Shown here piece by piece: positions 61,291 to 61,482 of a DNA stretch of 64,000 bases. The notes below the pieces were generated by a model. It was not told the origin of the DNA. It worked only from the letters and a program-made list of their open reading frames with translations, and did no database searches. The stretch comes from Escherichia coli (GTDB lineage Bacteria; Pseudomonadota; Gammaproteobacteria; Enterobacterales; Enterobacteriaceae): the NCBI RefSeq assembly GCF_003334385.1, contig NZ_QOWN01000007.1. The stretch is one strand, 5' to 3'. The position numbers and the translations under genes are program-made. Numbering within the stretch: the first letter of the stretch is position 1; the number at the start of each line of letters is the position of its first letter.

Positions 61291-61359
61291 ATGGCGCTTT
61301 ACACAATTGGTGAAGTGGCGTTGCTTTGTGATATTAATCCTGTCACGTTACGCGCGTGA
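61291..61359 (+). pseudogene. mlrA: 5' remnant of MerR-family regulator MlrA (YehV): 22 codons then stop, interrupted by inserted DNA
   Basis: MALYTIGEVALLCDINPVTLRA followed by TGA at 61357-61359; the expected MerR continuation (...TLRAWQRRYG...) is absent and unrelated sequence follows. Confidence 0.8.
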
Positions 61360-61482
61360 CGCAACATTTTTAAAAATCGACGAAGATCGTCCAGGAGCGC
61401 CGTTTTTCAAGGGTTGGATAGATGATTCGTTTACCATGTCGACGAACTTCGACGAATTTCGCCGATAAAAAGTGTCCCATAC

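Follow-up and report, generated by a model that had tools for sequence, protein, structure and literature searches.

The mlrA (yehV) gene in the analysed DNA, a 64,000-nucleotide stretch of Escherichia coli (referred to below as the window), is cut after its 22nd codon by inserted DNA. With a probability of about 0.93, the insert is one end of a lambdoid phage with an integration module of the Sp15/CP-933V type, integrated in mlrA. The insertion is real, was read correctly in the preliminary description of this DNA, and belongs to a kind that is already known and common in E. coli. For annotation it is routine, its phenotype can be predicted, and it opens no new question.

The genes btsS, btsR, yehS and yehR lie upstream of the mlrA stub in the same order as in K-12. 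BLAST aligns window positions 61125 - 61358 with K-12 mlrA at 234 of 234 nucleotides (E = 5e-121), and from 61359 onwards the similarity to K-12 is gone. The stop codon of the stub (61357 - 61359) consists of TG, the last two bases of the phage attachment core, which belong to Trp23, and A, the first phage-specific base. Thus the TGA was created at the junction. The equivalent 66 bp in a relative are annotated in RefSeq as a partial pseudogene. K-12 MlrA beyond residue 22 reads ...TLRAWQRRYGLLKPQ. The MerR HTH of MlrA spans residues 4 - 72 (Pfam), so that a stub of residues 1 - 22 leaves the DNA-binding domain split; a complete MerR HTH joined to the helical and C-terminal domains of MlrA is lacking, since only these 22 residues precede the stop. 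No match to the 3' part of mlrA, to yohO or to yehW was found by BLAST anywhere in the 64-kb window. The preliminary description had placed the cut after codon 22, with the MerR N-terminus running into a TGA and unrelated DNA where K-12 continues ...TLRAWQRRYG, and had put the visible part of the element at 2.6 kb. The alignment to K-12 bears out the cut and the lost continuation, and the inserted DNA that is visible, 61359 - 64000, measures 2,642 bp. The features of this region are listed in Table 1.

Table 1. Features of the mlrA junction and of the visible end of the inserted element (positions in the window)
Feature	Position	Strand	Basis or remark
btsS (yehU) ORF	59384..61084	-	
btsS-mlrA intergenic region; native mlrA upstream region intact	61085..61290	+	61125-61358 100% identical to K-12
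mlrA (yehV) 5' stub; ATG 61291, 22 codons MALYTIGEVALLCDINPVTLRA, TGA 61357-61359	61291..61359	+	
att core, 20 bp, CCTGTCACGTTACGCGCGTG	61339..61358		in relatives duplicated at the integrase-side junction
Inverted repeat GTCACG/CGTGAC around 7-bp spacer TTACGCG (61348-61354)	61342..61360		repeat scan
Non-coding prophage arm, integrase-distal (DinI) side; attR side in lambda convention	61359..61594	+	
Three direct repeats, 11-bp-spaced, ATGCCCCAT x3	61473..61513	+	
Promoter-like site TTGACA, 18 nt, AAAAAT, with two LexA-box-like sequences	61529..61579	+	consensus scan and direct reading
dinI-like gene, 82 aa, RecA-filament-binding SOS modulator	61595..61843	+	PHROG 189, E=3.5e-25
Intrinsic-terminator-like hairpin (61855-61874) and T run, after dinI	61855..61884	+	terminator scan
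orf-60-like gene, 57 aa	61880..62053	-	PHROG 9340, E=5e-24; WP_021565261.1
orf-156-like gene, 157 aa, always paired with eib genes	62058..62531	-	PHROG 6585, E=1e-96
Terminator-like hairpin downstream of eib-like gene, 9-bp stem CGGCAGGCA/TGCCTGCCG, minus-strand T run	62552..62586	-	direct reading
Eib-family trimeric autotransporter gene, 441 aa	62622..63947	-	PHROG 9547, E=2e-167

Positions 61100 - 64000 are matched at 100% identity by the complete genomes of G1/2, G6/7 and G8, genotypes of the probiotic Symbioflor 2 (PMC7232167), and at 99.9% by that of strain 2018-166. In G1/2, G8 and 2018-166 the mlrA 5' stub and 3' part are ~55.7 kb apart and bracket a complete lambdoid prophage. This prophage contains int, xis, a repressor gene of the XRE type, genes for replication and Q, three tRNA genes and the genes for a nanS-p esterase, holin, lysozyme and Rz. 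It further comprises the terminase, portal and capsid genes, tail genes among which a phage-borne OmpC-like porin gene is inserted, J and a tail fibre gene, after which eib, orf156, orf60 and dinI make up the mlrA-5' end. At the far end Int and Xis are followed by the duplicated core and then by the 3' part of mlrA. The integrase is identical to that of VT1-Sakai in 426 of 428 residues. Morphogenesis, lysis, replication and immunity genes are present in all five related prophages that were examined. The preliminary description had expected a lambdoid prophage complete with genes for lysis and structure, an integrase at its far end and the rest of mlrA behind it, and this is what the genomes with the identical junction contain. 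For what lies beyond position 64000, namely integrase, structural genes, second core and the 3' part of mlrA, relatives are the only source; because lambdoid phages are mosaic, this part may differ from theirs. The mlrA prophages of the three Symbioflor 2 genotypes and of 2018-166 are the best proxies for it.

The attachment core occupies codons 16 - 23 of mlrA, and the identity to K-12 stops at its last base, 61358. The integrase-side junction of strain 2018-166 reads ...TTAATCC-CTGTCACGTTACGCGCGTG-GCAGAGG, the last segment being mlrA. As the core of the window and the 20-mer at the int|mlrA-3' junction of 2018-166 are the same, CCTGTCACGTTACGCGCGTG stands at both junctions. In the GenBank record of VT1-Sakai (Sp15), each of the two junctions has a 20-bp attachment site annotated at the equivalent position. 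The statement of the preliminary description that yehV is a documented site of phage integration holds, for the 20-bp core and the crossover are those of VT1-Sakai, and the alignment to an uninterrupted mlrA that it had proposed defines the core at 61339 - 61358. By analogy with lambda-type cores, the inverted repeat GTCACG/CGTGAC and the spacer TTACGCG are candidate core-type Int sites and a candidate overlap region, respectively.

The DinI-side arm is identical to that of the Symbioflor G strains. The first 240 bp of the insert are 98% identical to the DinI-side arm of VT1-Sakai, and over 61291 - 61600, which comprises the stub and the arm, the identity is also 98%, the two sequences differing in a few SNPs and in repeat copy number. 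A motif related to the 11-bp repeat, GTCCCATGTATGCCCCAT, is found in the integrase-side arm, and together with the repeats at 61473 - 61513 it provides candidate arm-type Int binding sites. Of this repeat (ATGCCCCATTG type) the window has three copies and VT1-Sakai two, so that the number of units in this putative cluster of integrase arm sites varies. The core and the first phage bases (61341 - 61361) also form a hairpin that resembles a terminator, with a T run, CAACATTTTT, behind it that extends to 61371; by its match to the consensus it could stop transcripts that start at the mlrA promoter.

The promoter-like site itself occupies 61529 - 61558 and is overlapped by LexA-box-like sequences, CTGG-N8-ACAG at 61535 - 61550 and a perfect CTGT-N8-ACAG at 61564 - 61579. 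The promoter consensus scan returned 3 sites compared to 2.2 expected in shuffled sequence, and reliance is placed instead on the homologous annotation of VT1-Sakai, which has a putative promoter and an SOS box at the equivalent positions. An AGGAGG ribosome-binding site precedes the dinI-like gene. The product, annotated as 'DinI-like family protein' (WP_087893591.1), belongs to the DinI family by its ~80-aa DinI fold, and its control by LexA is predicted. One of the closest known systems is thus VT1-Sakai/Sp15 (CP-933V in EDL933), the Stx1 prophage in yehV of O157:H7, which has the same core, the same crossover and the same effect on mlrA, as well as the DinI-side arm with its annotated promoter and SOS box. 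The two differ 3' of dinI, where a ykgJ-like gene and genes for tail fibres stand in Sakai and orf60-orf156-eib in the window. Furthermore, stx1 is absent from the relatives of the window prophage.

The genes that follow dinI are laid out as in the eib cassette of the ECOR-9 prophages P-EibA, P-EibC, P-EibD and P-EibE, which carry immunoglobulin-binding Eib proteins. The orf-60-like gene is in the position of orf-60A of P-EibA, and the orf-156-like product is 96% identical to ORF-156A of that prophage. The hairpin downstream of the eib-like gene was not listed by the consensus terminator scan because its loop is 9 nt; in the P-EibA record a stem_loop is annotated at the corresponding position. 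The order of the cargo is likewise that of P-EibA: tail fibre, DUF4376/orf-191, eib, stem-loop, orf-156 and orf-60. The difference lies in what comes next, which is the eaaA autotransporter gene in P-EibA but dinI and the attachment site in the window.

The 441-aa Eib-like protein consists of a signal peptide, a divergent head, an Eib-type stalk and a YadA anchor. The anchor (PF03895) was found by Pfam at residues 383 - 441 (E = 1.3e-15) and matches the YadA anchor structure 2lme (E = 2e-18). Residues 244 - 350 align to residues 177 - 276 of EibD (2xqh) with E = 3e-21 and constitute an Eib-type coiled-coil stalk. The identity to EibA is 55% over the C-terminal ~240 residues and is highest at the C-terminus. 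The signal peptide, stalk and anchor of EibA are conserved in the window protein. The N-terminal ~200 residues (roughly residues 30 - 200), which form the head, cannot be aligned to EibA, the only named Eib compared for this region. Judged from its sequence, the protein could have a new binding specificity; this alternative and the one in which the element is a recombinant like that of G6/7, discussed below, share a single and very low estimate. The gene points to a surface protein that may confer serum resistance or bind immunoglobulin.

Activity of such phages is shown by PhiR5_1, which is inducible and has the same int/xis end and a DinI-Eib-type end. Its recorded host is E. coli C, and it is 96.9% identical to the visible phage DNA over 63% of the length. 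PhiR5_1 and PhiR12_x do not match the window prophage identically, and their Eib/adhesin allele is another one, of 357 aa in PhiR5_1. They are inducible temperate phages of ECOR origin in the collection of Brenes & Laub 2025 (PMC13190303, ref. 25).

Since the integration module and the DinI-side arm are those of the Stx1 phage VT1-Sakai/Sp15, and since a dinI end of this kind is common to many Stx phages, the element could be thought of as an Stx-converting prophage, which is the sense in which the preliminary description had called it potentially of medical relevance. This is quite improbable, however, and the virulence-type cargo that is visible is an Eib-like autotransporter. Stx phages in the phage collection match the dinI arm only, about 18% of the query; the Eib cassette is reached by no Stx-named record among the matches listed, its matches being the P-Eib and PhiR phages (PhiR5_1, PhiR12). 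The five related mlrA prophages that were examined, among them one from an STEC strain and the more mosaic one of SCU-104, are all without an annotated stx gene. In Stx-converting phages, stxA and stxB stand between the antiterminator gene Q (and tRNA genes) and the lysis cassette; in three of the five, that of STEC2018-553 among them, only ~990 bp separate the tRNA genes from nanS-p, an interval too short for stxAB. An Stx phage is thus supported neither by the related prophages nor by the pattern in the phage collection. This lineage of prophages seems to lack stx and to carry an Eib-like gene, and such an occupant of the site tempers the concern about pathogenicity.

The window ends at 64000, and many E. 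coli prophages are defective. It can therefore be asked whether the element is a degraded remnant, made up of the DinI-Eib end only and unable to excise, in which case the disruption of mlrA would be permanent. Several prophage genes of the G strains are annotated as frameshifted, which would agree with decay, although these frameshifts may be sequencing errors. A remnant is nevertheless unlikely: the prophage is full-length in all genomes examined that have this end or one like it (2018-166, G1/2, G8, SCU-104 and STEC2018-553), and the visible 2.6 kb has intact ORFs that are 99.9-100% identical to the prophages of the relatives. The idea that the junction is an assembly chimera or a sequencing artefact has nothing specific to recommend it apart from the proximity of the junction to the end of the window, and is hardly credible. 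Independent complete genomes of German and Swiss origin have the same junction base for base; it is present in four genomes in all at 99.9-100% identity, and at lower identity in several more, which shows that it is not an assembly quirk. Moreover, it falls exactly at the published att core.

A different fate of the two halves of mlrA is seen in G6/7. There the prophage that is entered at the identical mlrA 5' junction has a different integrase at its far end, beside ompW, and the 3' part of mlrA, with the yehV-type integrase, is ~1.15 Mb away on another hybrid prophage. The exchange point falls in a ~12-kb near-identical inverted block, extending from the tape-measure to the terminase genes, which the two prophages have in common. 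If the window prophage were likewise a hybrid formed by homologous recombination between two prophages, the halves of mlrA would be ~1 Mb apart and inverted and excision would not restore the gene. Then mlrA would be locked off, and Int would flip the segment that contains the terminus rather than excise the prophage. Of the four genomes that share the identical junction, however, three have the canonical arrangement, and the backbone of the window is not that of G6/7. Furthermore, the G6/7 inversion may be genuine or may be a mis-join across the 12-kb repeat. The element might be such a hybrid, but this is highly improbable.

The two regions of G6/7 in question are 2917500 - 2990000 (L001/L002) and 1740001 - 1839000 (L005/L006). 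Compared to K-12, G1/2 and G8, the segment of ~1.15 Mb between the mlrA and ompW prophages is inverted, and by the K-12 gene order it contains the terminus; neither G1/2 nor G8 has such an inversion. The ompW-side end (L006 32973 - 36955) consists of an eib-like gene, a split gene for an S6-peptidase (SPATE/EaaA-like) autotransporter, ISEc12 and an ompW' fragment beside yciE. The order of eib and autotransporter mirrors that of eibA-eaaA in P-EibA.

In the preferred reading, that of a lambdoid phage integrated in mlrA, a tyrosine integrase would have recombined the phage attP with the 20-bp core in codons 16 - 23 of the chromosomal gene. Strand exchange would have occurred in the 7-bp TTACGCG between the inverted GTCACG and CGTGAC. 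The window shows the integrase-distal junction, composed of the mlrA promoter, 22 codons, the core and the phage arm. The arm carries dinI, under predicted SOS control, and then the eib-orf156-orf60 cargo cassette, which would precede the tail-fibre genes. The split HTH is expected to leave the cell without functional MlrA, and the activation of csgD that depends on RpoS and MlrA, curli and biofilm would be reduced, as the literature and the domain mapping suggest. Precise excision of the prophage would regenerate an intact mlrA.

The 300 bp centred on the core are uninterrupted in 4,944 of 5,426 complete E. coli genomes and are not so in about 480 (9%). A prophage in mlrA has been reported in >95% of clinical O157:H7 and in about 21-28% of non-O157 STEC. 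Such strains typically lose curli, Congo-red binding and biofilm; mlrA in trans rescues some strains, and precise excision can restore the phenotype (PMC3874044, PMC5931665). Some strains with an insertion in mlrA are not rescued by mlrA alone (PMC3874044). The review of Symbioflor E. coli has nothing on prophages or curli.

The 3' fragment of mlrA in the relatives is annotated by RefSeq/PGAP as a 228-aa 'HTH-type transcriptional regulator MlrA' (WP_042101647.1; 2018-166, L009 9139 - 9825), and the same annotation is found in G1/2, G6/7 and G8. The fragment is promoter-less. The start codon assigned to it, ATC, is non-canonical and falls within the duplicated att core, and the label thus hides the disruption. 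A functional regulator encoded by this fragment was considered and rejected, because of the ATC start in the core and because HTH residues 1 - 16 are missing. Distal mlrA fragments do not restore biofilm and are not considered functional DNA-binding regulators (PMC5931665).

The tail cluster of the mlrA prophage of 2018-166 includes a full-length gene for an OmpC-like porin (WP_000738902.1; L010 29584 - 30747), positioned between a tail protein gene and the gene for minor tail protein L. The porin gene is also present in the mlrA prophages of G6/7, SCU-104 and STEC2018-553, whereas the other prophage arm of G6/7, the one ending at ompW'/yciE, lacks it.

The chromosome of the window is 98.3-99.4% identical to those of the Symbioflor G strains, and all differences end at 61007. 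The closest backbone is that of SCU-104, which has a mosaic variant of the prophage with a different Eib allele. Many of the other best matches to the backbone are presumably phylogroup A strains. Chromosomes of different background therefore have the same phage end, which is what a mobile temperate phage would be expected to produce. Two breaks in the alignment to the G strains correspond to insertion sequences that the window is without: IS1 in the yehA fimbrial adhesin gene (~34341) and IS421 in a WGR/DUF4132 (yehH-like) gene (~44420-44430). Positions ~16127-23900 are 99% identical to a region of G6/7 with D-arabinitol and ribitol-type catabolic genes, annotated there as dalD, an FGGY pentulose kinase, an RbtT/DalT transporter and regulators. 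We take this segment to be an accessory sugar-alcohol island upstream of fbaB-yegT.
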